From assembly GCA_965249725.1 (NCBI GenBank), contig CBDFMQ010000002.1, positions 1,536,001-1,600,000 of the forward strand: a stretch of 64,000 bases of DNA, written 5' to 3'. Every line of letters begins with the position of its first letter. Within the stretch, counting starts at the first letter, position 1. Made by a program: the position numbers and the translations under genes. Origin of the DNA: Longimicrobiales bacterium. GTDB taxonomy: Bacteria > Gemmatimonadota > Gemmatimonadetes > Longimicrobiales > Gaopeijiaceae. Below the pieces are notes generated by a model, which did no database searches, was not told the DNA's origin, and was given only the letters and a program-made list of their open reading frames with translations. This document shows positions 128 to 30,460 of this stretch, in pieces.

Positions 128-757
128 GTACCCCTTGGGTTGTCATTCTTGGCTGTTGGAACAAGGTATCGACTGGGGGGAGCCAAAGGATAAGGCCCGC
201 CATCCCAATGCCGCAACCATCCCAAAATGGTCCCATCCTGACATTCTCCCGCCGGTCCGTCCTACCCAGATTATCGGTCATGGGTATGTACGACATGATG
301 ATGGACGGCGCGGTGGGCTGGAGGCCACGGTACGACAGCCTCACGCCCACCCAAGAGCCCATCACCGGACCGCGGCTCACTGTCCAGTGCACCTATCCCG
401 GTACGAGCCTAGCCCCAACCGTGATCACATTCGGACTCTCGCCGCGCTACGGCTATTCGACTGCTCGGGAGGCACATGAGCTATTTCCTCAGATTAGTAC
501 GCGAGCAGAAGGAATTCGAGGTCGATACAGATCGGGCAGGCAGGCTTCCGATCCCGTTCGTTAGCGGGACCGTCAAGAGCGTGCATTCTTCGATTTCCCC
601 CTGAGGGCCCTTCGACCCCATCTCGGTTTCGCCATCTTTTGGACATGCGCCGTGCTTTCTGGTTGTTCGTCCTGCTCGTTTGCTACTATCTCTTCGTCGG
701 GTGATGGCCGCGTGTGATCGCCATGTGCGGCACCGCCTCTCAACATCGTTCTCAAAC

Positions 758-1111
758 TCAAGCACCCCGCCGTCTCTGAAGAAAATCCCGTACATCGTTC
801 TCCGGTAAGCTCGGGCCCCATCCGTTCGTCCGCTTAACAGGCAGATCACCCCGACGGATACGGGGTCGCCCTCTCTCACCAGCGTTCGGGATCGTGCCCG
901 CGGCCACCATCTTGCGCAGATGGTCTATCGAGTAGTTGGACTCGAGTGCGGCCTCCACGAGTGTCAGTGTCTCGTCTTGGTCGTCCCTCAACGCCTCGTC
1001 CACCTCAACGGCCAATCGGCGAATCAGCTTGCCAGTGACCTCATGCCCACACCGTTCCACTGTCTCGGCTTCGTTACGCCACCGGGTGAGTAGTTCCTGC
1101 ATCGCGTTCAT
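758..1111 (-). CDS. Excisionase-like (HTH_17/MerR-fold) DNA-binding protein
   Basis: ETLTLVEAALESNYSIDHLRKMVAAGTIPNAGERGRPRIRRGDL fits the Xis/HTH_17 pattern, with an N-terminal helical extension. Confidence 0.7.
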   Translation of the reverse strand: MNAMQELLTRWRNEAETVERCGHEVTGKLIRRLAVEVDEALRDDQDETLTLVEAALESNYSIDHLRKMVAAGTIPNAGERGRPRIRRGDLPVKRTNGWGPSLPENDVRDFLQRRRGA

Positions 1112-1222
1112 TTCGAGATGCCTCGACCAGGCTTTTCGGTGCCCCGAATAGCCCTGTCACATGCTGTGACGGCAGGAGGTTGGGGCTGTAAGTCGTTGTC
1201 CCATATGGCCGACACTACCCAA

Positions 1223-1241
1223 TGCATCCCGCGTGCATCCG
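1223..1241. repeat. Tandem TGCATCC(C/G) pair, candidate integrase arm-type binding sites
   Basis: TGCATCCC-gcg-TGCATCCG with 11-bp period; inverted counterpart at 8863-8883. Confidence 0.5.
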
Positions 1242-1271
1242 AAACCGCCCTCGAATCGCCATTTCGCCGCA

Positions 1272-2915: not shown

Positions 2916-3400
2916 ACCTGCTGCTTCAGAGCGTCCATCAACTCGTCATCACCAAGCGCCTCGAGTTCCTTCATCTTCGAGACAGGCAGAGACGCCAACC
3001 GTTCCAAGACATCGACCTTCAACTCAAGGCGATCCTTGAACATCCCGAGATGTTGGCCGAGGTGACGCAGTGCCTGGTTCGCCACAGCACCGTCGTATCG
3101 ATACTCGCCTGTGGGAGTGCCCTGACGGTCCGTCACGGGCTTCGCCTGCATCGCCCGCCCAACGTTCTCCACGAGCTTGGTAATCACCCAGTCAGCCGTG
3201 ATTTCTGTTCGCTCGACGCGCTCCTGTAACGCCTTATCAATTTGGGCGGCTACCTTAGCGTTCCTTAACAGCCTGTGACCCGCGACCTCGGCCCCGTTCG
3301 GGCTGTACCCGGCGCGACGTGCTGCACCCGTAGCGTTCAAGTCCACCAGGTACTCGTGGACGAACGCCTGCTGCTTCGGGGTGAGTCTGGGGGTGTTCAC
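2906..3400 (-). CDS. terS: Phage terminase small subunit (Terminase_2 type)
   Basis: N-terminus LTPKQQAFVHEYLVDLNATGAARRAGYS and C-terminal ALRHLGQHLGMF are typical of this family. Confidence 0.93.
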   Translation of the reverse strand: MNTPRLTPKQQAFVHEYLVDLNATGAARRAGYSPNGAEVAGHRLLRNAKVAAQIDKALQERVERTEITADWVITKLVENVGRAMQAKPVTDRQGTPTGEYRYDGAVANQALRHLGQHLGMFKDRLELKVDVLERLASLPVSKMKELEALGDDELMDALKQQVWQ

Positions 3401-3730
3401 CGGTGAGCCCCTCCCTGCACTTCCTTCGGGTCATCAAGGTCACCCCAATAGGGAGCGGGGAACTTCCTCGCATCTGACTCCTTGCAGCGCCGGAAGTTCT
3501 CCAGCGACTGCTGCAGCCACTCGATGACTCTCGAATAGGTCTTCCGGGTAGAGCCACACCGCCCCCCCCGGCTCCAAGTTGTCCAGGTCTCGGGTACTGT
3601 CGAACTCTTCCAGCAACAGCTTTGGCGGCTCATCTAGGTTGCCGGGGTCAACCTGAAACAGCATCAGAAGCCGGTCGTGACTGAGTTCGAGGTTGTCCAA
3701 CCAATCAGGGGCCGTGGGTTCGGGTCTCAT
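3397..3730 (-). pseudogene. Phage hypothetical protein (~110 aa) apparently split by a 1-nt frameshift
   Basis: ORF 3440-3730 overlaps the upstream stop (ATGA). ORF 3397-3633 overlaps the terS start (GTGA). The span is 3n+1. Confidence 0.5.
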
Positions 3731-4134
3731 TTGTGGGCTTCCTCAGGTTTGAGCGACTCCAGATTGTCCCTAAGGATCGCCTCGAGGACTGTTCTCAGGT
3801 CTTCGTAACCCGGCTGTGCCGTGATTCTGAGAAGCATCATCTGGGTGTCACTGTTCGTGATGCATAGATGATTCCAACAGAGCTTCTCCAGGTCCACTAG
3901 AGCCGCTAAGTGCAGTGGCCGTTGAAGGACCTCGTGCACATGCGGATGGTCCCGGACGAGCTGGTCGAGGATCTTGCCGTGCTTGGCCACCTGCTCGATG
4001 GCCGTGTACGCCACATCGTGATCCCAGGAAAGGCGGTCACAGATGTCCAGCACGGTCCGAGCGTGGGCGCGTTTGGAGACGGCCACCGCAAGTATCTCCA
4101 ACTCCAGCTTGTTCTTGTCCACGAATACCGTCAT
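3727..4134 (-). CDS. Hypothetical protein, possibly a stand-alone DnaB N-terminal-like helical domain
   Basis: ATGA-coupled to the helicase. LELEILAVAV...VLDI...DHDVAYTAIEQVAKHGKILD resembles the DnaB_N pattern by eye. Confidence 0.6.
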   Translation of the reverse strand: MTVFVDKNKLELEILAVAVSKRAHARTVLDICDRLSWDHDVAYTAIEQVAKHGKILDQLVRDHPHVHEVLQRPLHLAALVDLEKLCWNHLCITNSDTQMMLLRITAQPGYEDLRTVLEAILRDNLESLKPEEAHK

Positions 4135-5045
4135 GGCCAGAGTGCTTCTTCGTCGGGTAAAGCCTGACGGATACGGTGGGTGCGGTAGTCGATCTCGATT
4201 GGGATGTCTCCCTCCCTACCGTGTCGGTTCTTAGCCACCAGCAGCCACGTTCGCGTGATGTGCTCATCGTCCTCACGCCTAGTGTGGTCGAGCAGCCAGC
4301 CGAAGTGGGCTTGCTTGGAGAGCAGCGGGCAGCTGTCGAGGCTCTCGATGGTTGGGCGCACCTTGGGTGCGGAGCTCTGCCGATTGAACTGGCTCGCCAC
4401 CACCACGAGGGAGCCGGTGGATTCCATGAAGCTCACGATGCCCCGCACAGCGTCTTTCAGGGCACTGAAGTGGCGGGTATCGCTCTCGAGACTCAGGAGC
4501 TGGAAATAGTCGATCAGGAAGACACGAACCCCGGAGCTCGAATTCATCGTCGCCATCCACCCGAGTGCGTCATCGACAGCCGTAAGAGACGCGGCCATCT
4601 GGTTGGTCAGCAGACGACCCCACGATCCTTCTCGGGTCTTCTGCTCGATCGTCTCACGGACGTGCTCGGCTTCCATTGAGTCGAAGTGACGGCCCGGAGA
4701 GAGATGCTTTGCGGGCACGTTGGTCAGGATCGACCAGATCGCGGGCGTCGCCTCCGCCGCGTCGATCTCGAGGCTCACGAGCCCAACGTTGACGGCCTGT
4801 TGGATGAAGTCGGCGGCGAGGTTCCAGAGCAATCGGGTCTTGTTGTTTCCGGTCTTCCCGCCCACAACGGCGAGCTTCCCGAGTGGAATCGCGCCCGGCG
4901 TCACGTGATATACCCACTCGCCCAACGACGGCACGCCCGTGCTGAGCACGTAGTCCTCGCCATGGCTCTTCCCCATTTCGGCCAACGCCTGCTGCTCTGC
5001 GGCCCAGACGCGGCTGACGACATCTACCGTGACCAGGTCGTTCAC
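4131..5045 (-). CDS. DnaB-like (SF4) helicase, RecA-fold C-terminal domain only
   Basis: STG lead-in, Walker A variant GKTGNNKT, VSLE, FLIDYFQLL, VVASQFNR, LLVAKNRHG. Confidence 0.85.
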   Translation of the reverse strand: MNDLVTVDVVSRVWAAEQQALAEMGKSHGEDYVLSTGVPSLGEWVYHVTPGAIPLGKLAVVGGKTGNNKTRLLWNLAADFIQQAVNVGLVSLEIDAAEATPAIWSILTNVPAKHLSPGRHFDSMEAEHVRETIEQKTREGSWGRLLTNQMAASLTAVDDALGWMATMNSSSGVRVFLIDYFQLLSLESDTRHFSALKDAVRGIVSFMESTGSLVVVASQFNRQSSAPKVRPTIESLDSCPLLSKQAHFGWLLDHTRREDDEHITRTWLLVAKNRHGREGDIPIEIDYRTHRIRQALPDEEALWP

Positions 5046-5827
5046 TGGACAAGCTCCTGGGACTGCGATCGCCTGGCTGCCAGGTACTTGGCCTTGCCGG
5101 CGTCTAGCTTGGGGAATTCGATCTTCTTCGGCGGTAGCGAGCGAGCGCCTTCTGCCTCGTTGCAGTTTCGGATGATCCCGCGGGCGTAGTTCTCGTCCTT
5201 ACCCTCAGCGGCATACCCCTTCTCGACGTAGATGCGAAGACCGGCGACGACCTTCGGGATCTCATGGTTTGCCCACCACTCGAACTCTTGGAGGATGACG
5301 CTGTCGGCGATCCGGTTCGTCTGACGAGTTGAGCGAAACGCGGCGACCGCGGAGTCGACAACTGCGAGCTGTTCGGGGGAGTAGCGAGTACGGTTTTCGA
5401 GAATCTCTTCTTCGGGGGTCTTTTCCGTACTACCCGTACTCTCCTCTATAGGGGGTGTGGGGGAAAGTTCATGAGAATGAACCTCTTCATGTGCCTCTTT
5501 GGCTTGATGTTCACCCTCGTGAACCTCTTCCGGGGATAGCACCGCTCGAAGCTCCGGCGCTTTGGGTCCACGACGGATCACCTTGAGCCATCCCTTCCTT
5601 GCTAGGGACGCCCTCACCTGCTTCACATGACTCTCGGACCGCCGGAGCAGCGTCATCAGGTACTCCGTGTCGGCATAGCAGCCGCGGTCCGCACCCTCTA
5701 GACTCCGCACCATCATCCAGAACCTGAATTCAGCATCGGTGAGTTCTCCTGCTGCCGTTGCCCGGGTCGCATCGAAGAGCTCTCGAAGCGTCGTCCGTCC
5801 ATCCTGCTTTCCTTTCTTTGCCATCAT
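5042..5827 (-). CDS. Phage replication initiator / replisome organiser (N-terminal wHTH, DnaD-like C-terminus)
   Basis: LTDAEFRFW...GCYADTEYL...SESHVKQVRASLARKGWL wHTH, low-complexity linker, C-terminal ENYARGIIRN. Lies upstream of the helicase. Confidence 0.75.
   Translation of the reverse strand: MMAKKGKQDGRTTLRELFDATRATAAGELTDAEFRFWMMVRSLEGADRGCYADTEYLMTLLRRSESHVKQVRASLARKGWLKVIRRGPKAPELRAVLSPEEVHEGEHQAKEAHEEVHSHELSPTPPIEESTGSTEKTPEEEILENRTRYSPEQLAVVDSAVAAFRSTRQTNRIADSVILQEFEWWANHEIPKVVAGLRIYVEKGYAAEGKDENYARGIIRNCNEAEGARSLPPKKIEFPKLDAGKAKYLAARRSQSQELVQ
5467..5530. repeat. Two 22-bp iteron-like repeats inside the initiator gene (candidate ori)
   Basis: GTTCA-N6-TGAACCTCTTC at 5467-5488 and 5509-5530, 42-bp period. 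Confidence 0.55.
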
Positions 5828-5897
5828 GCTCCCTCACGAGCGGTATATGTGTGCCCGGCCCGGTGGTGAGGCACCGAGGAGGTCGAGACCTCACCCG

Positions 5898-6095
5898 CTA
5901 GTGCGAGCCCGAGCTTGGTTTCTTGTTCTTCATGACTTCCATGAGCGGGCGACCTTCGTCGAGCCGTCTCTGTCGCTCGCACATCTGGAGCAGGTGTTTG
6001 TCGCACGCCGCCTTGTGCCGCACCCAGCGTTCCTTTTCCTGATCTCGCCCAGTCACGCAGTCGAGGTGCTCGTCACCCGGTCTTGGTGCCATCAC
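5898..6095 (-). CDS. Small phage hypothetical protein
   Basis: Starts immediately after the stop of the Xis/AlpA-like gene; no recognisable motif. Confidence 0.45.
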   Translation of the reverse strand: MMAPRPGDEHLDCVTGRDQEKERWVRHKAACDKHLLQMCERQRRLDEGRPLMEVMKNKKPSSGSH

Positions 6096-6350
6096 CTACA
6101 CACCCACCGTCCCGCCATGTCGTGCCGGGTGGTTCCGGTCACGCCGGGCGCGGAATTGCCGCAGATCGCCCAGACGGTAAAGATTGCTGCGCCCATTCCA
6201 TCCGCACGGCTGAGGCCGATCCCTTCGTGCGTCACTGGCCCACTGCCTGAGCGTCTGTTGGCCCACTCGAAGAAACCGAGCCGCTTCGTTGGTCGTCACG
6301 ATGCGGCGCCCATCTGCGGATTCCAGTTCAATCGTCGTGTCTGCGCACAC
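6096..6350 (-). CDS. AlpA/Xis-like HTH DNA-binding protein
   Basis: IVTTNEAARFLRVGQQTLRQWAS...NLYRLGDL. First gene of the leftward operon, preceded by GGAGG, divergent from the repressor. Confidence 0.8.
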   Translation of the reverse strand: MCADTTIELESADGRRIVTTNEAARFLRVGQQTLRQWASDARRDRPQPCGWNGRSNLYRLGDLRQFRARRDRNHPARHGGTVGV

Positions 6351-6513
6351 GCTTTGTCCCTCCGCTTCTTGTGCAGGCCACCGTCCTCATGTATATTTGA
6401 GAGCGTTAGCCGGAGTAGCCATTCATATTGGATACACCAATCTAAGTCGAAGACGGATGAGGGTGTTAGCGGCATCCGCACTTGGCCCACACAACGACCC
6501 GGAGGCAGCCAGC
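6351..6513. promoter_or_regulatory. Divergent switch region between the AlpA/Xis-like gene and the repressor
   Basis: Lower-GC intergenic stretch with inverted repeat ATTGG-N5-CCAAT (6427-6441) and two GTTAGC copies. Confidence 0.5.
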
Positions 6514-7629
6514 GTGGCTAACATCGAACGGATTCCCGCCAACAAGGACCAAGTGGTCAAGAAACGGCTGCGAGAGGTGAGGGAGAAGGAGGGGTGGGGT
6601 TTCCGAAAGACTAGGACGAAGGTGCTTGCTGTGCTCAAGCAGGTGGACCCCGAGGCCAAGCTTCACCCCCCGGATGTGAAGCGCTTCGAGGGGAGTGACG
6701 AGCGCAAGACGCGACCGCCAGTATGGTACGTGGAGGCGTTTGCCGAGGCCGCCGGAGTGCCCGTCAGTTACCTAATGGCCGACGACATCTCGCCTTGGTC
6801 CATCAAAGAGTTCGAGACCGTCTTTAGGGAGATCCAAAGGGACTACCGGAGTCGCCTCGCGCATCCCACCAGCACCAACGAAGAGCGAACAAGGGAGGAG
6901 CTCAGGGACAAGGTCGCGAAGACGCTTCTTCTCGCTTCGGGCATCCCGCTACCCCGCCAGAAGAACCCACTGGGACGCCATCGGGATGACGTTCTGGCTG
7001 AGATCTATGCGGATATGCAGGTGCTCTACTGGGAGGCATTTTGGGGCAGGGAGTTCACGGAGCACGAACAGTTCCTGGACGCTGCGATGCAACTCGGGCG
7101 GCTAATTCCCTCACCTGCAAAACTTCCAGAACAGGGCTTTCTGCCGCTCGAAGAGGTAAGCGAGGACCGACTCCGGCGATGGTGGGTGCTACAGGCCGAA
7201 GCCCTCCGTGTTCTGTTGCGGCCCGGCGAGTTTGAGAAGGAAAAGATGAACCTCGGTCGAGGTGGTGAGCTTGGCCCGCTCTCCTGGGCGGAGCTCATGA
7301 AGAACCGTAGCAAGCTGGCAATCCCATGGGACGACGAGAACGCGATTCGGGCCGCCGCGTCGCCAGCCAAGTCGGAAGAAGAACAGGAAGAAGAGGCCGC
7401 ACGTGCAAAGCGGGTCACCCAGAAGACGCGTAAAAGGGAAGAGGTCGCGCGAATCAAGTCGCCGGAGGATCGCAAGCGCGCGATGGATGAGGCCTACCAC
7501 GAAGGGGCGTTAGAGAAGAGGGAACGGTGGGCGAGGGAGCAGGACCAGATTCCGGGGGACTCGGCCATGAGTACAGCCGAGCCAATTGAAGAAACCGACG
7601 AGTCAGGAGAAGGAGGCGAAGATGCCTAA
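6514..7629 (+). CDS. XRE-type HTH repressor with a large C-terminal region (Stl/CI-like), 371 aa
   Basis: GGAGG at 6501 then GTG at 6514. KKRLREVREKEGW...VKRFEGS...RPPVWYVEAFAEAAGVPVSYL is an XRE-like HTH. Stop overlaps the int start. Confidence 0.7.
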   Translation: MANIERIPANKDQVVKKRLREVREKEGWGFRKTRTKVLAVLKQVDPEAKLHPPDVKRFEGSDERKTRPPVWYVEAFAEAAGVPVSYLMADDISPWSIKEFETVFREIQRDYRSRLAHPTSTNEERTREELRDKVAKTLLLASGIPLPRQKNPLGRHRDDVLAEIYADMQVLYWEAFWGREFTEHEQFLDAAMQLGRLIPSPAKLPEQGFLPLEEVSEDRLRRWWVLQAEALRVLLRPGEFEKEKMNLGRGGELGPLSWAELMKNRSKLAIPWDDENAIRAAASPAKSEEEQEEEAARAKRVTQKTRKREEVARIKSPEDRKRAMDEAYHEGALEKRERWAREQDQIPGDSAMSTAEPIEETDESGEGGEDA

Positions 7630-8833
7630 GAAGAAAGCCCACTGGTCGAAAATCATCGACGCAGACGGAATCAGCATTCGACTCTACGAGCGGCTGGGAG
7701 GCACAGCCGTCTACATGTCATTTAAGTGGGATGAAAAGAAGGTGCAGAGGAGCACGAAGCGCAGTGATAGACGGGAGGCGGGAGAGTACGCTCGCCGATT
7801 CGTCCACGGCCTAGTAGAAGATCGATTCCTGGGACGCGCTGGGCCGGTGACGTTGGCGCAGGTGTTCCGCGTCTATAGGACCCATCGCCTTCCCCTGCCG
7901 ACTGACTCGTGGCAGAAAGCCGCCGAGATGCGGCTCAGGCTCTTCGAGGTGGCGTGGGGCTCCAACCTCAGCGTCGATGACATCGGTCAGACACAAATCG
8001 ACTCTTTCGACCACCTCCGGCGCTCTGGCCAGTTGACGCCCGACCACAACCGTGCCCGTAAAGCAGTCCGAGCCGGAACAATAGACAGCGACCTTCAGTT
8101 CTTGAGCGCCGTGTTCAATTGGGCTCACAAGCACAAGGTCGATGGTCGGAGACTCTTGTCGGAAAACCCGCTCCGAGATGTCGAGTGGCCGAGGGAGGAG
8201 AACGTTCGCCGACCCATCGCCTCGCACGAGCGATTCATGAAGACGATGGGGCACGTGGATGCCATCGACTCCGGGGGCCGCCTACGTTGCATCCTGACGT
8301 TGGCCCGGCACACCGGGCGCCGAGAGAACGCCATCTGCCAACTACTCGCCAGTGACTTGCTCCGCACCGAAGCGGAAGTCGGAGCCGTGTTGAGTGCGCT
8401 CGGGCTCGATGAGCGCCAAGCTAAGCACTTCCCCCACGGAGGCATTCGGTGGAGGGCCGAGACGGATAAGACCGGACGCTATACAGTGACGCCGATCCGA
8501 CAGGACGTTCGTGAGGCGATGGACGCGTACCTGCGGCAAAACCCACGGGTAGGAGACGTGCCGCTCTTCCCCGCCCCGAAGGATGACAGCAAGGCCATCC
8601 GCCGGGACCTCGCCGCACGATGGCTCCTGAAGGCTGAGAAGCTCGCAGGGCTACCCAAGCTGGCCGGCGGCCAGTTCCATCCCTACCGGAGGCTGTGGGC
8701 TACGGAACGGAAGGATCTACCAGTCCAGGACGTGGCGGCTGCCGGTGGATGGAAGAGCATGGAGACCGTTCAACGCCTCTACCAGCAGGCGGACGGGGCA
8801 ACCACACTGGCGGCGGTGGAGGCCGGAGAGTGA
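7622..8833 (+). CDS. int: Tyrosine recombinase / phage integrase
   Basis: HTGRR (catalytic R), DKT, HPYRR (HxxR), GGW...QRLY (W, catalytic Y). ATG at 7622 with SD AGGAGG. Confidence 0.93.
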   Translation: MPKKKAHWSKIIDADGISIRLYERLGGTAVYMSFKWDEKKVQRSTKRSDRREAGEYARRFVHGLVEDRFLGRAGPVTLAQVFRVYRTHRLPLPTDSWQKAAEMRLRLFEVAWGSNLSVDDIGQTQIDSFDHLRRSGQLTPDHNRARKAVRAGTIDSDLQFLSAVFNWAHKHKVDGRRLLSENPLRDVEWPREENVRRPIASHERFMKTMGHVDAIDSGGRLRCILTLARHTGRRENAICQLLASDLLRTEAEVGAVLSALGLDERQAKHFPHGGIRWRAETDKTGRYTVTPIRQDVREAMDAYLRQNPRVGDVPLFPAPKDDSKAIRRDLAARWLLKAEKLAGLPKLAGGQFHPYRRLWATERKDLPVQDVAAAGGWKSMETVQRLYQQADGATTLAAVEAGE

Positions 8834-8862
8834 CGCAGGGTCTCCTTTTCTTGTGTCCCGGT

Positions 8863-8883
8863 GGGATGCAAACGGGATGCAAA
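8863..8883. repeat. Tandem GGGATGCAAA pair, candidate integrase arm-type sites next to the att site
   Basis: GGGATGCAAA-C-GGGATGCAAA between the int stop and the tRNA 3' end. Confidence 0.6.
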
Positions 8884-8954
8884 GCGAAAAAGAGGCGGAA
8901 CGTGAGATGGGACTACAAGCCCCAGAAGCCAGTTGCCTATTAGGCTTTCGCAAG

Positions 8955-9029
8955 TGGGCGGTGGCAGATTCGAACTGCCGACCTCCTGGGTGTAAACCAG
9001 GCGCTCTGAACCAACTGAGCTAACCGCCC
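8955..9029 (-). tRNA. tRNA-Val(TAC), no encoded CCA
   Basis: GGGCGGTTAGCTCAGTTGGTTCAGAGCG-CCTGG-TTTACAC-CCAGG-AGGTCGGCAGTTCGAATCTGCCACCGCCCA folds as a cloverleaf. Confidence 0.97.
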
Positions 9030-9108
9030 GTGGGGTATTCCTCCAGCAACCAAGCCAAGAACACCGACTTCCCGACACAACTGCCGATGGCGTGGTTCTC
9101 CCCGGGGC

Positions 9109-9175
9109 CTCCCCCAGCTGCCCGGTATCCAACAAGACGTGCAACATAGTCTCGTCGTCGGCCTGAGTGTAGATG
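9109..9175 (-). pseudogene. Relic of a tyrosine integrase C-terminus, copy 1
   Basis: Translates IYTQADDETMLHVLLDTGQLGE, compared with the integrase end LYQQADGATTLAAVEAGE. 56/67 nt identical to 12360-12426. Confidence 0.65.
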
Positions 9176-9348
9176 CCTGTACCACGGCACGGCACTCCCG
9201 CCCGCTCGCCCCGGCATGGATTAGAGGTGAGCCAGTCAGCTACTACGCCTGGAATAGGTTCAAGAAGTATTGGCTCCTACATCCCGCAGCGACAGTCCAG
9301 AACTGCTTGCAATAGAGAGAGCGTCGGGATTCCTCTCCCACTTCGGGC

Positions 9349-12179
9349 TCAACAGGGGTCGGAGAACACAAACACTCCTTTGGCTTGCAGAGCGGCCACG
9401 TCCGTGCAACTCACGCTCGTGCCACGAAGGTCAACGGTGTTCCCCGCTCCGAGCCCCGTGTTGTCGAGCAGTGGCTGAATGTCGGTGAGGCCGGCGTTGA
9501 ATTGGAGGCGGAGAAAAGTCAGGCTTGTGAGCCCGCTCAGCACGCTGACGTCGCTGATCAAGTTGCTGGGGAGGAAGAGGAGCGTCAGGCTCGTGAGCTC
9601 GCTCAGCGCGCCGAGGTCGCTGATCGTGTTGGCGGAGAGGAAGAGGAGCGTCAGGCTCGTGAGCTCGCTCACCGCGCCGAGGTCGCTGATCGTGTTGAAG
9701 CTGAGCCGCAGGTCCGTCAGGCTCGTGAGCTCGCTCAGCGCGCCGATGTCGGTGATCGTGTTGTTGGAGAGGCCGAGGTGTGTCAGGCCCGTGAGCTCGC
9801 TCAGCGCGCCGATGTCGGTGATCGTGTTGAAGCGGAGGCCAAGGAAGGTCAGGCTCGTGAGATTCTGGATCCCCACCAAGCTCACGATCCCAAGGGAGTA
9901 GGCATCCATAGCCGTCAGCCACGATATCCGGCTGCAGGTGAGATCGTCCAGCGGGCCGAGCGCGAGCGCCACCCTGATCGCCGCGTCCAGGTTGGTATCC
10001 TCGAACGTCGCGATGGCAGAGGCGGGGTGATCGCTGCAGAGGTCGCCGGGCAAAAGTTCCGTCGTCCCGATTACCTCGGGGAGCCTCACGAATACGATTG
10101 TCGTGACCGGATCCTCATCCACAACAACCACGGTCAGCGTGTTGCCGGAGATAGTGTACTGGAGATCCTCGTCGTCGCACCCCGGGTCACAGATGAAGAA
10201 GCGAGTGCCCATGACATACCACGTGCCGTCGTCGGTGCAGCTGGTCTCCTCGTCGCAAAACAATTCCTGCGTGTCGCCGGCAACGGACTCCAAGAACGTT
10301 CCGTCGCCCATCAAATTGATAATGAACTGGGTGCTCGTTCCAACGAGCAATTCCACGCCGTTCTGCAAGACACTTGTGGCCCTCCATAACCCGACTAGGC
10401 TAGGTCCAATAGCCACGACAGTGGCACTGCCCGAGTTGTTGCTCGGATCGTCCTCCTGGTGCTCCAGCACCGCAGCGGTTGCCGTGTTCGTGAGCGTCTC
10501 GCCGGCAAAGCCTTCAGCCACCACGGCCGTTATCGTGAGGCGGACCAGGGCCCCCGGGGCCAGGCTCGGGATCGTCCACTCGCCGGTGCTGGGATTGAAC
10601 GCTCCATCGGACGAACGAACTGGAGTCCCGGGGGCAGATGGTCGGTGACCACGATGTGGTCGGCCCGGTCGGGCCCGTGGTTCGTGACGGCGATCGTGAA
10701 CACGACCTCCTCCGCCTCATGGACTTCGACCTGGTCGGCCTCCTTGGTGACCGCGATGTCGGCGACCCGTCGGCCCACGTCCACGAGCGCGGACGCCACG
10801 TTGTTGGACGGATCGTCGGTCTGATCGGTCAGCTGGGCAGCCGATGCGACGTTCTCCAGGGTCTCGCCTCCGGTCCCGTCGGCCAACGTGGCGACGATGG
10901 TGAGCGTGGCGGACGCCCCCGGCGCGAGGCTTCCCACGTCCCAGGCGCCAACAGGGTCGACGCTCCCGCTGGACGGCGTCATGGTCTCGAAGAACATGCC
11001 GTAGGGCTCGGGGTCGTCCACCTTGACCCCGGTAGCCGTCGCCGGGCCGTTGTTGACCACCGTGACCGTGAAGGTCACCAGGTCCCCCTCCAGCGCCGTC
11101 GGCTTGTCCACAACCTTGGTCACCGCGATGTCGGCCGTCAGGAGCGAGACTTCGAAGTCCTGGCTGGTGGCCGGATTGAGGCCCTGGGCGGTAGCAAAGA
11201 GCCGGAACAACCCGGCATCGGGACTGACCAGACCCTCGAACGTGGCGAGGCCCGCCACGGCGTCGACCGTGGTGGTGCCGTTCAGCTCGGCGGCCTGCGG
11301 TGCACCGACTTCGCCTGGTGCGGCTGCGGCGGCCGCAGCCACCACCGCTGCGGCCCGATTCTGTAGCTCGAGCGTGATCGAGCCCGTGTAGCTTGCGACG
11401 CGATCGCCCCGGGCGTCCACCGCCTCGACGCTGGGAGCGGGCTCGAGAGGCTGGTCGACTTCCACGGCGCCGGGCTGGGTCACAAAAGCCAGAGCGATGA
11501 CTCGCGGCAACACCAACAGGCTGAGGCTGGCCGATTCGGTTCCAGCGAGCACGGTGATGTCGACCGGGCCGGGAAGGTGCGCCTGAAGGAAGCCCCCCTG
11601 GGTCACCGTAGCGATCGACGAATTCGAGCTGTCCCAAATCAGTGTCGGAGTGCCGGGCTCGCTCATCTTGACCTGGGCTTGCAGCTGGAGCCCGTCGCCT
11701 TCGGTTACGGGGCCGGCTTCGAGCAACGTGAGCGACGTCACGAAGTTGTTGCTCAAGGGCCCGTGCACGAGCTGAGCCTCCTGGACTTGAGTTTGCGCGG
11801 TGAGGACGAACTCGGCGGTGACGCCCGAAAACTCCACCGCCCCGACCGCATTGACGGCCTCGAATGTGAGGTAGATCGCCTCCTGAGTGGCTTCGAACTC
11901 GCAGGTGACGACCCACTCGGTCAGGGTTGGATCGACCGACTCGACACATACCGCGAGGACGGCATCGTCGGACGCCCGCTTGACCGTCACCCGGATCTCC
12001 TCGACGGCGGCAGCCTGGTCGGTTGTGGTTCCCTGGGGGAAGACGGTCCGCAGACCTACCCCCACTGTCCCAGGGGAGGCTTGCCCGACTGGAGACGACC
12101 CGTCTACGCAGGAGGAGACCAGCAAGAGAGAAACAAGACCACAAAGGCCCAGAAGCCGTCGAGACACCATGGAGACCAT
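9349..12179 (-). pseudogene. Surface lipoprotein (Ig-like, 2x DUF11, lipocalin-like, internalin-type LRR), ~943 aa, with one frameshift near 10612-10618
   Basis: Lipobox LVSSC. The second DUF11 (ADIAVTK...) breaks at PPGLQFV and resumes in the 9349-10524 frame as SSDGAFNPSTGEWTIPSLAPG. C-terminal 22-aa LRRs. Confidence 0.8.
9518..9860. repeat. 66-bp coding tandem repeats (LRR units)
   Basis: About five near-identical units encoding LSELTSLTxLxLxxNTISDLGA. Confidence 0.85.
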
Positions 12180-12359
12180 CGCTGACGAGGAAGCGGAGGC
12201 TCGCTCCCTTAAAAAACAAATGTCGTGCTTACTTCAATCATGCGTCCATGAGGGTCATCCGGCAAACGCTTCGCGCGACTCGGTGTCGGCCGTCGCGGTA
12301 AGCACACCGCTCGAGGCCTCCAACCCCTTGGGTTTGGTTTAGGGTTGGTAGTCATCGGG

Positions 12360-12426
12360 CTCCCGCAGCTGCCCGGCGTTCAACACGACCTTCAAGGTAG
12401 TCTCGTCATCGGCCTGCGTGTAGATG
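12360..12426 (-). pseudogene. Relic of a tyrosine integrase C-terminus, copy 2
   Basis: Translates IYTQADDETTLKVVLNAGQLRE. Direct repeat of 9109-9175, followed by CTACCAACCCTAAACCAAACCCAA short repeats. Confidence 0.65.
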
Positions 12427-12427
12427 T

Positions 12428-13021
12428 CTACCATACGCCGGGGAAGAGCCGGTAACGAACCCGCGCAGCGTAGTCGGCGTAGCCGGGGAGCTTCGCCTGC
12501 AGTGTGCGGTCCTCGAGTGACGTACGGACGACAAGGGCGGCGATTGCGCCTAAGGCGGGGATGAACGCGCGGGCCGAGGACAGGAGAGGGGGAAGCGAGA
12601 GGATGAAGGCGAGCATGCCGACATATCCGGGGTGGCGCACGAACCGGTACGGGCCGGTGTCGACCGTGTGGTGCCCCCGTTCACTCTGAATGCGGACTGT
12701 CTTTTCAAAGAACGGGTTCTCACCCATGGCACGAAGGAAGAGGCCGCCGCCTAGTAGAAACAACGCAAGGCCAATCGGCTCCGCCCATGGAGGCAGCGGG
12801 GCCGAGCCGGAGTTGGCGTCGAATCCTGCAACCGCCGGGATCGCAAAGAACAACGGCGCGAACACTGCAAACCACACCCAGTCCCAGGTCTCAGTGCCTT
12901 TCTTAAGCCACATGCGGTGGCCAAGGACCTGAGGGTTCACGGCCCCTACATAGAGCAGTTGGCCGAAGCCGAAGATGAGCATGAGGCCCACAAAGCGACC
13001 CCAAGGGGAATCGGGTATCAT
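12428..13021 (-). CDS. Isoprenylcysteine carboxyl methyltransferase (ICMT/Ste14)-family membrane protein
   Basis: NPFFEKTVRIQ...HTVDTGPYRFVRHPGY...EDRTL...YADY. Start taken at MIPDSP. Confidence 0.88.
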   Translation of the reverse strand: MIPDSPWGRFVGLMLIFGFGQLLYVGAVNPQVLGHRMWLKKGTETWDWVWFAVFAPLFFAIPAVAGFDANSGSAPLPPWAEPIGLALFLLGGGLFLRAMGENPFFEKTVRIQSERGHHTVDTGPYRFVRHPGYVGMLAFILSLPPLLSSARAFIPALGAIAALVVRTSLEDRTLQAKLPGYADYAARVRYRLFPGVW

Positions 13022-13101
13022 TCGAGCCAGTGGTCCGGCGGTGCCGAAGCAACTATCCCGGCAAGGTCGGCCACTCCCAGAGGTGACGATTCCATCGCGT
13101 G

Positions 13102-13488
13102 CTACTCGGCGCTCTGTTTGGGCAGGGACGCGTGCACCAGGAAGCCACCAAGCAGCACACCGCCCAAGCCGCCCCCGACGCGATATGCAGCGAGCTGTTC
13201 GACGAACCACCATCGAATCAGCCCTGCCCAGAGGTCGAGGGGCACGAATGGAAGGATGAGGCCCACGAGGAGCACCAGGGCTCCGAAGATCCGAAGGCCC
13301 CTAGGGTATCTGGTTGCCGAGGCGCTGAAGATCAGAAGGAGGCCGGTGATGATCCGAATCGAAGCCGCAATGTAGAGGCCGGTTCGCGACTCCCAGTCTG
13401 CAACCGACACGAGTTGCTCCGGCAAGACGGCGATCCAAACGCCCGAGAGAATCACGGCGCCGCCGAGGGCCGCCACTGGTTTGGACAT
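13102..13488 (-). CDS. Hypothetical membrane protein (~4 TM)
   Basis: 128 aa with four hydrophobic segments. Confidence 0.7.
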   Translation of the reverse strand: MSKPVAALGGAVILSGVWIAVLPEQLVSVADWESRTGLYIAASIRIITGLLLIFSASATRYPRGLRIFGALVLLVGLILPFVPLDLWAGLIRWWFVEQLAAYRVGGGLGGVLLGGFLVHASLPKQSAE

Positions 13489-13660
13489 GTCTACCTTTGA
13501 TCTGTTTGTTCGTCGGAAGCCTGTAGTACAAAGCGAAGCTGCAACCTAGCACCCCCGCCGGTGGGGCGGCACGTCGTAACAACATGCGTGGCGTCGGGCC
13601 ACCGGCTTGACCATCTTTCCCGTTGAAAAAGCACACCGCGAACACGAGTCGAGATCTGAT

Positions 13661-15028
13661 ATGACAACGCTGAAATCCTACAACCCGGCCGACGGCGAAC
13701 TGGTCGGTGACGTCCCGGTCACGTCTCCCGACGACATCCCGGCAATGGTGGATCGCGCACGAGCGGCCCAGCCGGCGTGGGAAGCTCTGGGGCACGAAGA
13801 ACGCGCGCGCCTACTGGCGAAGGCCTCCGAGACGTTCGCGGAGCGAGCCGAGGACCTGGGAAGACTGATCACCGAAGAGATGGGCAAGCCTCTGCCCGAG
13901 GGGATTGGCGAGGCAAAATCCCTGGCCTACGTAGGCGAGGAGCTCGAGGAGATCGGTGAGGCTCTGGCACCCGAGACGTTCGAGGACGGTCGGAACCACT
14001 CCACCGTGTATCACGACGCCCTCGGGGTTTGCGCGGCGATTACTCCGTGGAACTTCCCGATGTCCATGCCCCACTGGATGGTGCTTCCCGCGCTGGCAGC
14101 CGGGAACACGGTGATTCTCAAGCCATCGGAGGAGACGCCGCTCTGCGGTCAGGCATACGCTGACGTGCTGAACGCGGCGCTCCCACCCGACGTCCTACAG
14201 GTGGTCCACGGGGCGGACGACCAGGGCAAGCGGCTCGTGGAGAGTGACGTCGACCTCATCGCCTTCACGGGCTCCAGAGAGACCGGCAAGCACATTCTGA
14301 GAGCGGCCAGTGGCGAGTTGAAGCGCGTTATCCTGGAACTAGGGGGCAAGGACCCCATGGTCGTCCTCGAGAACGCCGATCTCGAGAGGGCAGCCAAGTT
14401 CGCGGCCATGAACAGCTTCAGGAACGCGGGGCAGGTCTGTGTGAGCACAGAACGCATCTTCGTGCCGGAGTCCATCGCCGATCGCTTCGAGGCCCTCCTC
14501 GTAGAGGCGGGTGAAGCCATGAAGCAGGGCGACGGCATGGAGGAGGGCGTCAAGGTGGGACCCATGGTCAATGCCCAGCAGCGAGACCATGTCCTGGGGC
14601 AGATCGACACGGCGGTAGCCGAAGGCGCGAAGGTCCTGTCAGGTGGTGCCGGCCACCACGACAACTTCGTCACCCCCACCATCCTCACTGACGTGAGCGA
14701 AGAGATGGGCATCGCCAAGGACGAGACCTTCGGGCCGGTAGCTTGCGTGACGCGCGTGGCCTCTGAGGAGGACGCCATCGAACGGGCCAATGCCACGCAC
14801 TTCGGGTTGGGCGCCGTCGTCTTCGGTGAGGACGACGAGCGGACGGCCCAGGTCGCCCGGCGACTGACCGCCGGAATGATCGGAATCAACAAGGCTGCTG
14901 GCGGTGCGGCGGGAACGCCGTGGGTCGGGGCCCGGCAGAGCGGCTACGGCTTCCACAAATCCAAGGACGGGCACCGCCAGTTCACGCAGACGCGCGTGGT
15001 CACGAAGCCGGTTCCCAGGACCTCCTAG
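13661..15028 (+). CDS. NAD(P)-dependent aldehyde dehydrogenase (SSADH-like)
   Basis: ITPWNFP, KPSEETP, FTGS, LELGGKD, AGQVC, ETFGP. Confidence 0.93.
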
Positions 15029-15094
15029 AGTCCGGCGATCACGAAGAGCGGTGACGACCGACGCCAATAACGGATGGATCAGGAGATCCGACCT

Positions 15095-15301
15095 CTACAG
15101 GATGATGGCCAGAGGTACGAGAAACACGTAGCCGACGACCAACAGGATCGGGGCCATCGTGATGGACCCTTGGGCGAGAAGCCAGTACCCCAACGTGATC
15201 GTGAGCAGTGCTCCGACTCCGAACGCCAGATTGACGGTGGAGAACTGCAGCGATGCCTTCTCTGCAGCTCCACCTGACTTCGCATCGTTCTTCTTGGCCA
15301 T
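15095..15301 (-). CDS. Small 2-TM membrane protein (DUF3098-like)
   Basis: LQFSTVNL...GYWLLAQGSITMAPILLVVGYV. Confidence 0.65.
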   Translation of the reverse strand: MAKKNDAKSGGAAEKASLQFSTVNLAFGVGALLTITLGYWLLAQGSITMAPILLVVGYVFLVPLAIIL

Positions 15302-15349
15302 GGTCACGATCCTATTTGGCTCAGATTCCCCGGTCAACCGACCCGCGGG

Positions 15350-16705
15350 CTAGAGTCCGAAGCGTTCAACGTAGCGCGCGAGACGCGAGCGTGAGATCCC
15401 GAGCCGCCCCGCCGCCTCGGTCTTGTTGCCTCCAGTGCTCTCGAGCACCGAACGAAGCTGCCGCTCGATCGCACCGTCCAGAGTCATGTCACCCTCGTTG
15501 GCGGGGAGCGCCTGATCGGCCGGCCGGCGGTTGTCCCCCGCGAGGCCGAGCGCGAGATGTTCAGGCCCCACAACAGGCCCGCGTGCGACGACAGCACCTC
15601 TCGTGAGTGCGTTCTCGAGCTCACGCACGTTACCGGGCCAGTCGTGCGCGAGGAGTTCTCCCATCGCCGCCTCGGAGATCTGCCGAACGTCGCTACCTGT
15701 CTCGGTGCGGATTCTACTCAGGAGATGGTTCGCCAGAAGAGGAATGTCGTCTTTCCGCTCTCTCAGGTTGGGCACGACCATCTCGACGACGCGCAGGCGA
15801 AAGTAGAGATCCTCCCGGAATCCCCCCTCCTTGACGAGTTCCTCCATCGGTTGGTGCGTGGCTGCGACCACCCGGGCTTCCGTCCGCTTCGCTTGCTCGC
15901 CTCCCACAGGATAGAACTGCCTCTCCTGGAGCACGCGGAGCAACTTCGATTGAAAGTCGGGCGAAGTGTCGCCGATCTCGTCCAGAAAGATGGTCCCCCG
16001 CCCCGCCAGCTCGAAGTACCCCTTCTTGTTGGCGACGGCACCGGTAAACGCACCGCGGGCGTGCCCGAACAGCTCCGATTCCAGCAGCGTGTCGGTGAGC
16101 GCCGTGCAGTTCACCGCAATGAAGGGATCGGCTGCGTGGAGCGAGTGGTCGTGTATGGCGCGGGCCACCATCTCCTTACCCGTACCGGTCTCGCCGCGCA
16201 CGAGCACCGTGGTTCGGTTGCGGGACAGAACACCGATCATCTTGTAGATGTCGATCATCCGCGGGTCACGGCCCACCACGGTACCGGATGCTTCCGGGTC
16301 GGCGATGTCAGGCTCGGGATCCTCGGCGGCGGCACGGACCAGTTCCTGCTCGCCGAGGCAGCGCTCGACGACGGACTCCAGTTCCTTCAGGCCCACGGGC
16401 TTGACCAAGTAGTCGAACGCCCCGGACTTCATGGCCTCCACGGCCGACGTCATCGAGTCATGTCCGGTCATTACGATGACATCCACCCCCGCCATCGATT
16501 CGCGGAGCCGGTTCAGGAGCTCCAGCCCCGTCATCCCCTCCATCCGGACGTCGGTGATGACGACCGCGGGATCGAACGACATCACCTTGCCCAGGGCCTC
16601 CTCCGCGCTCTCCGCCTCATCCAGTTCATAGCCCGAATGCTCGAGCTTGGTCCGGAAGACCGAGCGGGTGTCGGCGTCGTCGTCGACGAGCAAGATGCGA
16701 GACAA
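15350..16705 (-). CDS. Sigma-54-dependent response regulator (NtrC/AtoC family)
   Basis: REC domain, GETGTGKE, GAFTGA, WPGNVREL, Fis-type HTH. Confidence 0.95.
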   Translation of the reverse strand: MSRILLVDDDADTRSVFRTKLEHSGYELDEAESAEEALGKVMSFDPAVVITDVRMEGMTGLELLNRLRESMAGVDVIVMTGHDSMTSAVEAMKSGAFDYLVKPVGLKELESVVERCLGEQELVRAAAEDPEPDIADPEASGTVVGRDPRMIDIYKMIGVLSRNRTTVLVRGETGTGKEMVARAIHDHSLHAADPFIAVNCTALTDTLLESELFGHARGAFTGAVANKKGYFELAGRGTIFLDEIGDTSPDFQSKLLRVLQERQFYPVGGEQAKRTEARVVAATHQPMEELVKEGGFREDLYFRLRVVEMVVPNLRERKDDIPLLANHLLSRIRTETGSDVRQISEAAMGELLAHDWPGNVRELENALTRGAVVARGPVVGPEHLALGLAGDNRRPADQALPANEGDMTLDGAIERQLRSVLESTGGNKTEAAGRLGISRSRLARYVERFGL

Positions 16706-16774
16706 AGTGTCCTCTACAGGCCTGTTGAATGGGTACAGCGGGTCGCGTTAGCAGCGCCGAGGCGTCCGTCACTC

Positions 16775-17734
16775 TTACTCCGACCCGTCGGAGTCGGGTC
16801 CCGGCTGCTCGGGGGGCGAGGCGTCCTCCATCCAGAAACTGGGCTGATCGGGAGCGTCCAAGGCCCTCAGGCGGGCGAGACGTTCGCGCCGGGCCCTTCG
16901 CCGGACTCCCACCATGGCGACCATCGCCAGGCTCAGGAACATCCAGAATACGGCCGAGTGCGACAGAACGAAGATCCAGCCATACCGGTCCTTAACGTAG
17001 CGACGCCAATCCTCCTCGAACTGGGCCGTGGTAACGCCGTAGGTGGATCGGAATGCCCGCTCGAAATTGCTCGTCTCCTTCCACCGGGCGAGCAACACTT
17101 CGAGAGCCCTTGGACTGCTCTGCACGACCAGATACTCGATGGTGGTGGCGGAGAGCAGGTACGCGGTCTGGGCGCGGGCCTGGTCCCGAGGCCACGAGAG
17201 GGCGAGAGAGTCCAGCGGGTTTCGATCCCTCGCCAGGGCCACCCTGAGCTTCCAACCCTCCGACCAATCCCATCCGCCGCTGGCCCACTGCGCGTATCCC
17301 TCGGAAAACCACCTCGGGACCCGGAGTCCGTCCAGGTACTGGTGCAGCCCGATGTGTGCCCATTCGTGACGGAGTACCTGGCTGTCGCTCCACCCACGTC
17401 CGCGGGCCGATACGTATGCGGGCATGACGATGGTCGCCTCGGCCGGCAAGGCGACCCCAGCGCCCCAATCTGGAGCTCGTCCTCCGGTCAGTCGCTGAAA
17501 CCCGGCCTCGTCAGCCGCAAGGAAGACCCGAACGTCTTGAGGCATCCCCGACGGTAGTCCTGGTAGCGGGGGGGCCGTCTCCAGGGCGGACAGAACGAGC
17601 GCGGCCTTGCCGGAGTCGGGCGGCATGAAGAAGACGGTCGCTCGGTTTCCAACGAGCTGGTCGCCACCGTCGAACGCCTGCGTGGGAGTGTCCTGCCCGA
17701 TCCCGAAGAGGAGGACCAGGAGTGCGGAGATCAC
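16775..17734 (-). CDS. Peptidase MA-like metallohydrolase with a C-terminal TM helix
   Basis: HEWAH...PRWFSEGYA gluzincin motifs; N-terminal signal-like segment. Confidence 0.8.
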   Translation of the reverse strand: MISALLVLLFGIGQDTPTQAFDGGDQLVGNRATVFFMPPDSGKAALVLSALETAPPLPGLPSGMPQDVRVFLAADEAGFQRLTGGRAPDWGAGVALPAEATIVMPAYVSARGRGWSDSQVLRHEWAHIGLHQYLDGLRVPRWFSEGYAQWASGGWDWSEGWKLRVALARDRNPLDSLALSWPRDQARAQTAYLLSATTIEYLVVQSSPRALEVLLARWKETSNFERAFRSTYGVTTAQFEEDWRRYVKDRYGWIFVLSHSAVFWMFLSLAMVAMVGVRRRARRERLARLRALDAPDQPSFWMEDASPPEQPGPDSDGSE

Positions 17735-19347
17735 GCTCCCTCAGGCGCCCCGATCTGATCGAGCTTGGCCTGAAGCGTGTGGTTTTCCGGATTGAGCTCC
17801 AGGGCACGCCGCCAGAGCACTCCCGCCTCAGCTGTCTGGGAATTCTCCAGAGCGATGGCCCCGAGTTTGATGTAGACGTCGTCTCCGAGGCGGGGATCGG
17901 CTTCGACCGCGAGCTCGTACTGGAACTGTGCCCGCTCCTTGTCACCTCGGCGCAGGGCCTGGTCCCCCAGGGCCTTGTGGGCCTGGGGCACCACCGGCTC
18001 ACGCTCCAGAGCACGTTCGTAGTAGCTCTCGGCGGCCTCGTTCTCTCCTCGGTGCTCCAGCACCGCCCCGGTGTTGACCAGAATCGCCCCGTCCTGTGGG
18101 TACAGCTTCAGGCCCTCCCGGCCGATCTCGACGGCTCGGTCCATGTCGCCGGCGATTCCGGACGCGAGCACTGAGAACGCGAAGAACATCGGTGACAGCG
18201 TTCCATCGCCGACCTTGTCCTGATAGCCCTTGAACGAGCCCATGGCGGCCGCTCCGTCCCCGGCCTTGAACTGTACGATGCCGCGAGCGAGGAGAAGACA
18301 GGGGTCGTCGGCATCAAGCTTCTCGGCCTCCGCGAGCGCGACGAGCGCATCGTCGTAACGCCCGATCCTCTCGAGGGCCAGCGCATGGTTACGGTGCAGC
18401 GGGTAGGTCATCTCGGCGGCATCTCCCATCTCGTCGAAATGCACGCTCGCCTCCTGTGCCCGCCCGGACTTGAGGCTGATGAGACCGAGATACGCCCGCG
18501 CCTGCGGATGCTTGGCATCCAGCTCTAGCGTCTTTCGGAACTCCCTCATGGAGTCCTCCATCATCCCCGACCGGTAGAACGCCAAGCCGAGGTTGAGGTG
18601 CTCATCGACCGAGCCCTTCGCCTGCGACTCCGCGGATCGCTTGCCGACCTGTACCGCGAATCCCGCCTGAATAAGCCCGTAGAGCGCCTTGCCCGTGTCG
18701 AACTCCACCAAGCCCGAATCGTCCACCAAATTGGCCACGGTGCGTTCGCCGTCGATGAGCGGAATGATCCGCTGCTGTCCGTCCGTGAGCTCGATGCCTT
18801 CCTCCTGAAGAGGATCCCGCTCGAGGGAGAAGATCAGGTCCATCGACGAGATCTTCCTCTCGATCAAGCTCCACTCATCGACCCGACGGGCCCCCTCCAT
18901 CAGGAGCGCATCGATGCTGATGGATACCCGCATCACATGATCTTCGGGTACGATGTCTGGCTGGAACTGGAACGTGCCCTGATCCCAGGTAAAGACGTGG
19001 TAGACGGCCTCTTCGATCTGTAGCGAGATGTACCGCTCGAGCTCCTCCTGAGTGAGGGCTCCTCCCTCGACCAGCAGCTGCCCGAGCTTCTTGCCCTTTT
19101 CGTGGGCCTGCTTCTCCATCGCCTCCGAAAGCTGATCCCGGTCAATCACTTCGTTCTTGACCAGGAGCTCACCGAGCCGATCCGGGCGGTTTACCACCGA
19201 CGCGTATATGACCCGACCGTCCTCGAAGTAGATGTAGCCGAAGTTGGACTGGTCTGTCAGTGACAGGCAGCCCGTCTTCCCTCCCATGGCCAGCAGCTGG
19301 GAGATATCGGCTAAGCTGACATCCGCGAGAGCGCCTTCGATCGCCAT
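17731..19347 (-). CDS. DUF4388 (PatA_N-like) domain plus TPR protein
   Basis: MAIEGALADVSLADISQLL...KTGCL...W..GTFQF...LLMEGARRVDEW, followed by multiple TPRs. Confidence 0.85.
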   Translation of the reverse strand: MAIEGALADVSLADISQLLAMGGKTGCLSLTDQSNFGYIYFEDGRVIYASVVNRPDRLGELLVKNEVIDRDQLSEAMEKQAHEKGKKLGQLLVEGGALTQEELERYISLQIEEAVYHVFTWDQGTFQFQPDIVPEDHVMRVSISIDALLMEGARRVDEWSLIERKISSMDLIFSLERDPLQEEGIELTDGQQRIIPLIDGERTVANLVDDSGLVEFDTGKALYGLIQAGFAVQVGKRSAESQAKGSVDEHLNLGLAFYRSGMMEDSMREFRKTLELDAKHPQARAYLGLISLKSGRAQEASVHFDEMGDAAEMTYPLHRNHALALERIGRYDDALVALAEAEKLDADDPCLLLARGIVQFKAGDGAAAMGSFKGYQDKVGDGTLSPMFFAFSVLASGIAGDMDRAVEIGREGLKLYPQDGAILVNTGAVLEHRGENEAAESYYERALEREPVVPQAHKALGDQALRRGDKERAQFQYELAVEADPRLGDDVYIKLGAIALENSQTAEAGVLWRRALELNPENHTLQAKLDQIGAPEGA

Positions 19348-19353
19348 ATCGCC

Positions 19354-30307: not shown

Positions 30308-30460
30308 GCGACGCTCCTTTGTGCAACGGTCCTGTTACCGTCTACCTGCAGACGGTCCCATCCGAGTAAGACGGGCCAATCTAGTGCCCGGTCCCGGAAA
30401 TTCCTAGACCACCTGTCAGGTCATACGAGAACACAGTATTTGGGCTTTCATGCGGGCCCG

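Follow-up and report, generated by a model that had tools for sequence, protein, structure and literature searches.

The closest described arrangement is that of the tDNA islands collected by Islander. The portion of that account considered here (PMC4383910) describes features that are shared with the present locus: a tyrosine integrase beside a tRNA gene, crossover in the anticodon loop, restoration of the tRNA gene, tandem stacking and variation of cargo. In the same portion 159 of 3919 islands have a 5' fragment, 2083 anticodon (A) sites and 125 tandems are counted, and the integrase gene of Mx8 is described as extending across attP. A second group comprises the split, or suicidal, integrases of SSV1, pTN3 and pT26-2, in which att lies inside the int gene and integration yields int(N) and int(C) pieces. 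The excerpted text of PMC8371274, from which this description is taken, also states that the attB of pTN3-like integrases is a tRNA gene's 5' half and, citing Williams 2002, that the anticodon site has dyad symmetry.

The window, that is the whole 64-kb stretch of DNA analysed, contains a 73-nt direct repeat on the 5' side of tRNA-Val(TAC), the sole Val(TAC) gene among the 54 tRNAs called in the genome. The two copies (9106-9178 and 12357-12429) are 82% identical and co-directional with the tRNA. They are very probably the decayed integrase ends of tandem 5'-side tRNA islands. The gene content suggests that the organism is probably one of the Gemmatimonadota. The features of the locus are given below, where G001 and G002 are two genomes of the same genus.

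7586..8833, plus strand: intact integrase of a separate prophage (~22.5 kb) on the 3' side of the tRNA; same family as the stubs, different clade
8863..8883, plus strand: tandem 10-mers after the prophage integrase stop, resembling arm-type sites by sequence, a putative function
8954..9029, minus strand: tRNA-Val(TAC), intact by the tRNA call, targeted by islands on both sides
8990..8996, minus strand: anticodon loop, the putative 7-bp crossover region; the 3'-side prophage fragment starts there, and in related islands the 5' fragments stop 2-5 nt beyond the loop
9030..9092, minus strand: diverged element-derived att arm and leader, from stub 1 to tRNA +1 (DNA profile)
9093..9205, minus strand: integrase stub 1, roughly 35 C-terminal codons that carry small deletions and have lost the stop; newer element (G002 alignment, -39 to +78 nt of the Tyr codon)
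9349..10524, minus strand: cargo, LRR part of a secreted protein or lipoprotein gene (Pfam LRR_4/LRR_8)
10530..12179, minus strand: cargo, Big_2/DUF11 part (Pfam), probably of the same gene as the LRR part, with a frameshift near 10640
12316..12429, minus strand: integrase stub 2, about the last 25 codons plus the start of the att arm; older element (116 nt align with the integrase end and arm of G002 at 89%)
12328..12349, minus strand: two 11-bp tandem repeats resembling arm-type sites by sequence, a putative function
12428..13213, minus strand: cargo, ICMT-family methyltransferase-like gene with a complete C-terminus (Pfam ICMT/PEMT), whose stop abuts stub 2
13102..13488, minus strand: cargo, small membrane protein, with an 89% identical copy at a different G001 locus (sequence comparison)
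13533..13600, minus strand: host leader and promoter region of tRNA-Val, displaced by 4.5 kb; G001 joins it straight to the tRNA
13607..15028, plus strand: aldehyde dehydrogenase (ALDH), conserved host flank (domain match, neighbouring genomes)

The original prediction described 67-bp direct repeats at 9109-9175 and 12360-12426 that encode the C-terminus of a tyrosine integrase, and this part of it holds. The identity of 56/67 was recomputed and corresponds to 55/66 in the 66-nt codon core shared by both copies, the minus-strand translations agree with the predicted peptides, and the two cargo blocks (membrane protein plus ICMT; LRR lipoprotein) are as it had them. The assignment to a tyrosine integrase is backed by the relatives of the resident prophage integrase, which number 2121 matches at E<=0.001. 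Many of the best 150, in which the tails were inspected, carry YQQADxxTMLxVVxxxxELRE-like C-terminal tails. It is further backed by G002, where a 188-aa integrase fragment ends in a near-identical terminal peptide. Y399 is an invariant column in a 50-sequence alignment. A profile built from both copies finds no third copy in the 64-kb window and matches the tail of the resident prophage integrase with E=0.69 only. An origin of the stubs from that integrase was rejected on this score and on its position in a separate starred, 3'-rich clade of the 49-row tree discussed below. NCBIfam gives no match for the resident integrase at E<=0.01, and no relatives were found in phage collections, plasmid collections or the PDB. 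The tRNA is the sole Rfam match, with no other structured RNA. The two repeats have no common fold (fold z of +0.5 and -2.0 for the minus strands).

Integron cassette arrays are built with an IntI integrase and attC sites that have conserved R''/R' boxes. The likeness of the locus to such arrays is superficial and consists in repeated elements that alternate with cargo genes. The window repeats differ in that they are coding remnants, present in two copies, with no conserved hairpin, and attC hairpins with R''/R' boxes were not found in them.

The original prediction also held that both copies are cut at the catalytic tyrosine with identical breakpoints. A pairwise comparison of just two copies necessarily gives them a common end of similarity, and this coincidence is therefore no test. 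Compared with the G002 integrase, the copies begin at different places. The alignment of copy 1, which has small deletions, starts at 9205, or 39 nt before the Tyr codon; that of copy 2 starts at 12429, 7 nt before this codon and next to the ICMT stop. The upstream part of copy 1 alone is modestly above chance, with 131 of 3000 shuffles matching its score, and the evidence for it is strengthened by the fact that its two alignments abut. The start at 9205 has a 4-nt microhomology with the DNA downstream of the LRR gene. The DNA upstream of copy 2 is unrelated to the G002 integrase (2475 of 3000 shuffles are as good). Downstream, homology to the G002 integrase extends beyond the 67 bp, to 9093 in copy 1 and to 12316 in copy 2, where it runs through the two 11-bp tandem repeats. 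The relatives shown have equivalent tandem 10-11-mers after the integrase stop. A DNA profile trained on 31 other 5'-side loci, to which the window did not contribute, matches copy 1 and its leader over -146..-3 relative to the tRNA (E=1.1e-13).

Other stubs begin elsewhere in the gene. Twenty were hand-picked for a late profile start from the matches listed, a choice that is biased because the profile was one of 5'-side integrases, and these start 14-52 codons upstream of the Tyr. Fourteen of them lie 7-103 bp upstream of an intact co-directional tRNA and six have no tRNA within 300 bp. In genome G011 the start of one stub lies beyond the Tyr. The integrase stubs have no fixed cut point; their starts are scattered, which is the pattern that the original prediction itself tied to ordinary decayed islands. 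Copy 1 and the stub at tRNA-Val of G002 both begin near -39 nt, and this common start may be due to shared ancestry or to a deletion hot spot.

These starts bear on the mechanism that had been proposed, in which a recombination site within int at the catalytic-Tyr codon builds cassettes of cargo plus integrase tail, in the manner of SSV1 or of integrons. It was encouraged by copy 2, which begins merely 7 nt before the Tyr codon, and by the 10-mer TACACNCAGG, which occurs three times in the window, in the tRNA anticodon arm and at the two Tyr codons (expected 0.2), a count that was found after the fact and in which the two stubs are not independent. The starts at -39 nt, at -7 nt, at -14 to -52 codons and, in one stub, downstream of the Tyr speak against such a site. 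The same 10-mer also lies inside the unbroken 188-aa frame of G002, with att ~100 bp further on. Upstream of both stubs there is no tRNA half and no arm, and window 1-20000 contains no N-terminal int piece besides the intact prophage gene. The use of TACACNCAGG at the Tyr codon as a second, anticodon-like att was dropped as a probable coincidence, since the 10-mer lies within the intact G002 frame. In relatives the full and long integrase frames are uninterrupted across the Tyr region and att is ~60-130 bp past the stop. With scattered starts, frames that read through the Tyr and a crossover that maps to the anticodon loop, a site at the Tyr codon is barely credible.

The comparison with split integrases has the same outcome. 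The use of a tRNA 5' half by pTN3-like integrases, as given in the excerpted text of PMC8371274, is a point of likeness. The difference from what is described there is that here att lies ~60-130 bp beyond the stop and the integrated copies are intact in relatives. Neither an att inside int nor a fixed split point was found, as the starts are scattered and the integrated genes intact, and an HMM search of window 1-20000 and the whole genome gave no int(N) partner for the window locus.

Strong DNA matches to the locus occur only in G002 among the 61 genomes searched. In G001 the homologue of window position 13533 is joined directly to tRNA +1. This is an empty site, and 9030-13532 is therefore an insertion. 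The leader at 9030..9092 is unlike the host leader of the empty site. The interval between the ALDH start and tRNA-Val, compared in four genomes, is 133 bp in G001, ~1.9 kb in G002, 4.6 kb in the window and 6.4 kb in G127; seven other Val loci have no ALDH in the stretch covered. The empty site and the four interval sizes in four genomes support the earlier proposal of successive site-specific insertions with variable cargo on the 5' side of the tRNA. Counterparts of the cargo are found at other loci, the DUF11/LRR block at the tRNA-Asn locus of G002 (77% DNA identity for the LRR cargo) and the membrane gene elsewhere in G001. The frameshift between the DUF11 and LRR parts falls in window 10600-10680 and may represent decay or an assembly error; the G002 homologue is likewise split over two frames. 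LRR genes are recurrent cargo in or near islands (L077 in G138, L115, L031 and L033). Farther along the window, at 30450-30720, a run of tandem 12-bp repeats lies upstream of a DAC-domain-like gene, with TSAP/LQAH repeats in the translations.

The family to which the stubs belong was examined in other genomes. The best 30 family loci of a 151-genome search supplied 32 integrase ends, of which 16 face the 3' end of a tRNA, 7 lie upstream of a tRNA 5' end and 9 have no tRNA within 350 bp. In the set closest to the parent fragment (16 rows, from 14 of 401 genomes), 8 rows are on the 5' side, 2 on the 3' side and 6 have no tRNA within 350 bp, and a tRNA 3' fragment follows two of these six. 5'-side islands look common in this lineage. 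The 5' layout also looks commoner in this integrase family (7 of 23 tRNA-adjacent rows) than in the portion of the Islander account considered here, from which the sampling differs. The parental full-length integrase that had been sought was not found in the 401 genomes, where the nearest full-length integrase is only ~57% identical to the parent fragment. The titles and abstract openings that the literature searches listed contain no account of the stub integrase family in this lineage.

A 49-row tree was built without duplicates, rows of <75 aligned residues or rows of <80 bits, and the window stubs are therefore absent from it. The 5'-side label (17 of 49 rows) changes 7 times in this tree, compared with a shuffled mean of 14.2, and 0 of 500 shuffles were as low. 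The label is clustered and the 5'-side integrases were not recovered as one clade.

Of the 33 5'-side loci examined, 5 have a displaced tRNA 5' half. All five are 40-48 nt long and end at the anticodon arm, just past the loop. They are nt 1-40 of tRNA-Thr in the same genome as the window, at 4568 bp (one of three loci examined there), nt 1-43 of a Val gene in G173 at 17.7 kb (one of nine loci) and of a Pro gene in G389 at 5.95 kb (one of seven new loci), both with an intact integrase, and the halves of Ala (nt 1-41) in G011 and of Val in G018 (two of 14 loci). The other 28 loci have no clear tRNA fragment, and many of these are limited by contig ends or by the 5-60 kb searched. The tRNA 3' fragments of 3'-side members start at or just before the anticodon loop. 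The prophage on the 3' side of tRNA-Val, which has a terminase, DnaB and an intact integrase, carries tRNA nt 34-76, from the anticodon loop on, at its far end 22.5 kb off. The positions of these ends, just past the loop for 5' halves and at the loop or slightly before it for 3' fragments, make the loop the crossover in both layouts. This placement in the tRNA anticodon loop comes from the fragment ends of relatives and of the 3'-side prophage rather than from biochemistry. At the window locus itself, where the tRNA halves are missing, the crossover is not mapped, and the window's own elements would have used the anticodon loop by analogy. In G002 near-identical integrase ends are found beside two tRNA genes, Val and Asn, that have the same anticodon stem but different loops, which is what core sites in the stems would predict. 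A segment that combines arm-like repeats with a decayed stretch resembling tRNA-Asn is present in near-identical form at two places (L002:2190-2290 and L025:1905-2000), upstream of the integrase fragment at the Asn locus of G002 and, in inverted orientation, on the 3' side of the tRNA-Val of G002.

These fragment ends also bear on the distal boundary of the insertion, which lies exactly at tRNA +1 and shows weak microhomology with the DNA upstream of the membrane gene as in G001. In 9030-13540 the search for a displaced tRNA 5' half was negative (its best score was equalled in 223 of 300 shuffles), and the Val loci of G002 and G127 likewise have no 5' fragment. This boundary prompted the idea of insertion without target duplication exactly at tRNA +1, with the cut outside the gene and the acceptor stem bound, a mode that island finders relying on fragments would overlook. 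However, a 5' half of 40-48 nt is present in each of the five mapped 5'-side elements, and 3'-side members start at the loop. An acceptor-stem symmetry was rejected on the anticodon-arm fragment ends of the relatives, and insertion at +1 is very improbable.

Several other layouts were seen around tRNA genes. Outside the window, tRNA-Thr(TGT) at G000:C3:1957757-1962397 (L115) has integrase remnants on both sides; its 4.57-kb 5'-side island keeps the displaced tRNA half and a 557-aa LRR gene and is the best-preserved example in the genome. At G000:C3:83396-83829 an 89-codon integrase stub lies on the 5' side of tRNA-Ala(TGC), the DNA upstream looks by eye like an IS transposase, and a pair of tandem 3' fragments follows at +2.7 and +20 kb. 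Head-to-head integrases or remnants that flank one tRNA recur at L040 (G067), L061 (G127), L124 (G523) and in the window. In a third layout the integrase is co-directional with the tRNA and lies at the far end, followed by a 3' fragment (L100/L113 in G301, L102 in G423). About 19 tRNA genes are clustered on one strand at G000:C3:1903222-1906030.

Tandem stacking is seen directly in G011, where a first stub with its arm, leader and tRNA 5' half is followed, after 10.8 kb of cargo, by a second stub whose arm and leader run up to the intact tRNA. Such a layout is the outcome expected of a second integration into a restored tRNA, and the window locus would be this layout with more of it deleted. 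A DNA profile run over 5-20 kb upstream of 32 5'-side tRNAs found a clear second stub at two loci, the window and G011, and one weak candidate more.

It is possible, though unlikely, that the window holds a single or composite element instead, with the DUF11/LRR block and its stub acquired by homologous recombination of near-identical int tails or arms between tRNA loci. The tRNA-Asn locus of G002 has the same cargo ahead of a near-identical integrase fragment, and in the codon core stub 2 is nearer to the G002 Asn-locus integrase (62/66) than to stub 1 (55/66). Against this, a diverged arm and leader of its own connect stub 1 without a break to the tRNA, and G011 directly shows tandem stacking with the tRNA half kept.

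With tandem 5'-side islands as the preferred reading, a history of the locus can be proposed. Each repeat would be the surviving 3' end of a tyrosine-integrase gene plus part of the adjoining att arm. The parent elements would recombine at the anticodon loop, the integrase-side arm bringing a tRNA 5' half and a leader, and the integrated element would sit upstream of the restored tRNA with int pointing toward it. A second element entering the restored tRNA would push the first outward. The resulting order would be host leader, element 1 (membrane gene, ICMT, stub 2), element 2 (DUF11/LRR, stub 1) and tRNA. Later deletions, some at short microhomologies, would have taken away the far arms, the two displaced tRNA halves and the greater part of each int gene. 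We infer the order of events, the number of elements (two or more) and the role of microhomology in the deletions; for the distal boundary exactly at tRNA +1, deletion would account only via the weak microhomology.

The locus has the insertion relative to an empty tRNA site and the tyrosine integrase by att that characterize tDNA islands, the integrase being present only as stubs in the window and intact in relatives. It differs from the islands in the portion of the Islander account considered here in that its integrases are stubs and its displaced fragments are lost. Rules that call for an intact integrase and a fragment, as given there, would therefore not call the window islands. The window locus is best classed as a decayed remnant of the 5'-fragment kind of tDNA island and not as an intact island. 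Stacked 5'-side tRNA islands are a known, uncommon arrangement, and no new cassette system is involved.

The insertion affects the surroundings of the tRNA gene. The host leader of tRNA-Val is now 4.5 kb away, and every cargo gene is co-directional with the tRNA. A TAnnnT -10 box is present in 5 of 34 element leaders (shuffled 6.7) versus 13 of 33 native leaders (shuffled 7.7), and a promoter search of 8700-13800 gave no match. The element leader as a sigma-70 promoter is unsupported, with no -10 box enrichment in the 34 element leaders, and the idea that stubs persist as carriers of a tRNA promoter is therefore unsupported as well. An IHF-like motif occurs in 7 of 34 element leaders (shuffled 0.9) and in 0 of 33 native leaders. 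Many 5'-side leaders, at different tRNAs, have a TGGCTT-like motif ~25 nt and a GAAGAAGTA-like motif ~10 nt before tRNA +1. RNase P trims tRNA 5' leaders, and read-through followed by such trimming would be the simplest explanation for the expression of tRNA-Val.

The window is a clear case of the decay of tandem tRNA islands, and it illustrates how the "identical breakpoints" of a two-copy comparison mislead. 5'-side islands are missed by finders that require an intact integrase and a tRNA fragment. The pair of near-identical integrases, one at tRNA-Val and one at tRNA-Asn, is a natural experiment on retargeting via the overlap region. How is tRNA-Val(TAC) transcribed when its own promoter is 4.5 kb off? 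A wider and rather doubtful reading is that the integrase family uses the symmetric loop site in every available way (on the 3' side facing the tRNA, on the 5' side rebuilding its front half, and with int at the far end next to a 3' fragment), moves between tRNAs of the same stem via the 7-bp loop alone, and often brackets one tRNA head-to-head. The element-derived 5'-side leader of a single-copy essential tRNA, a leader with no sigma-70 -10 box, would then perhaps act as a promoter or a processing signal that has been domesticated and is of a type not described before. If true, such a signal would explain the persistence of stubs in so many genomes.
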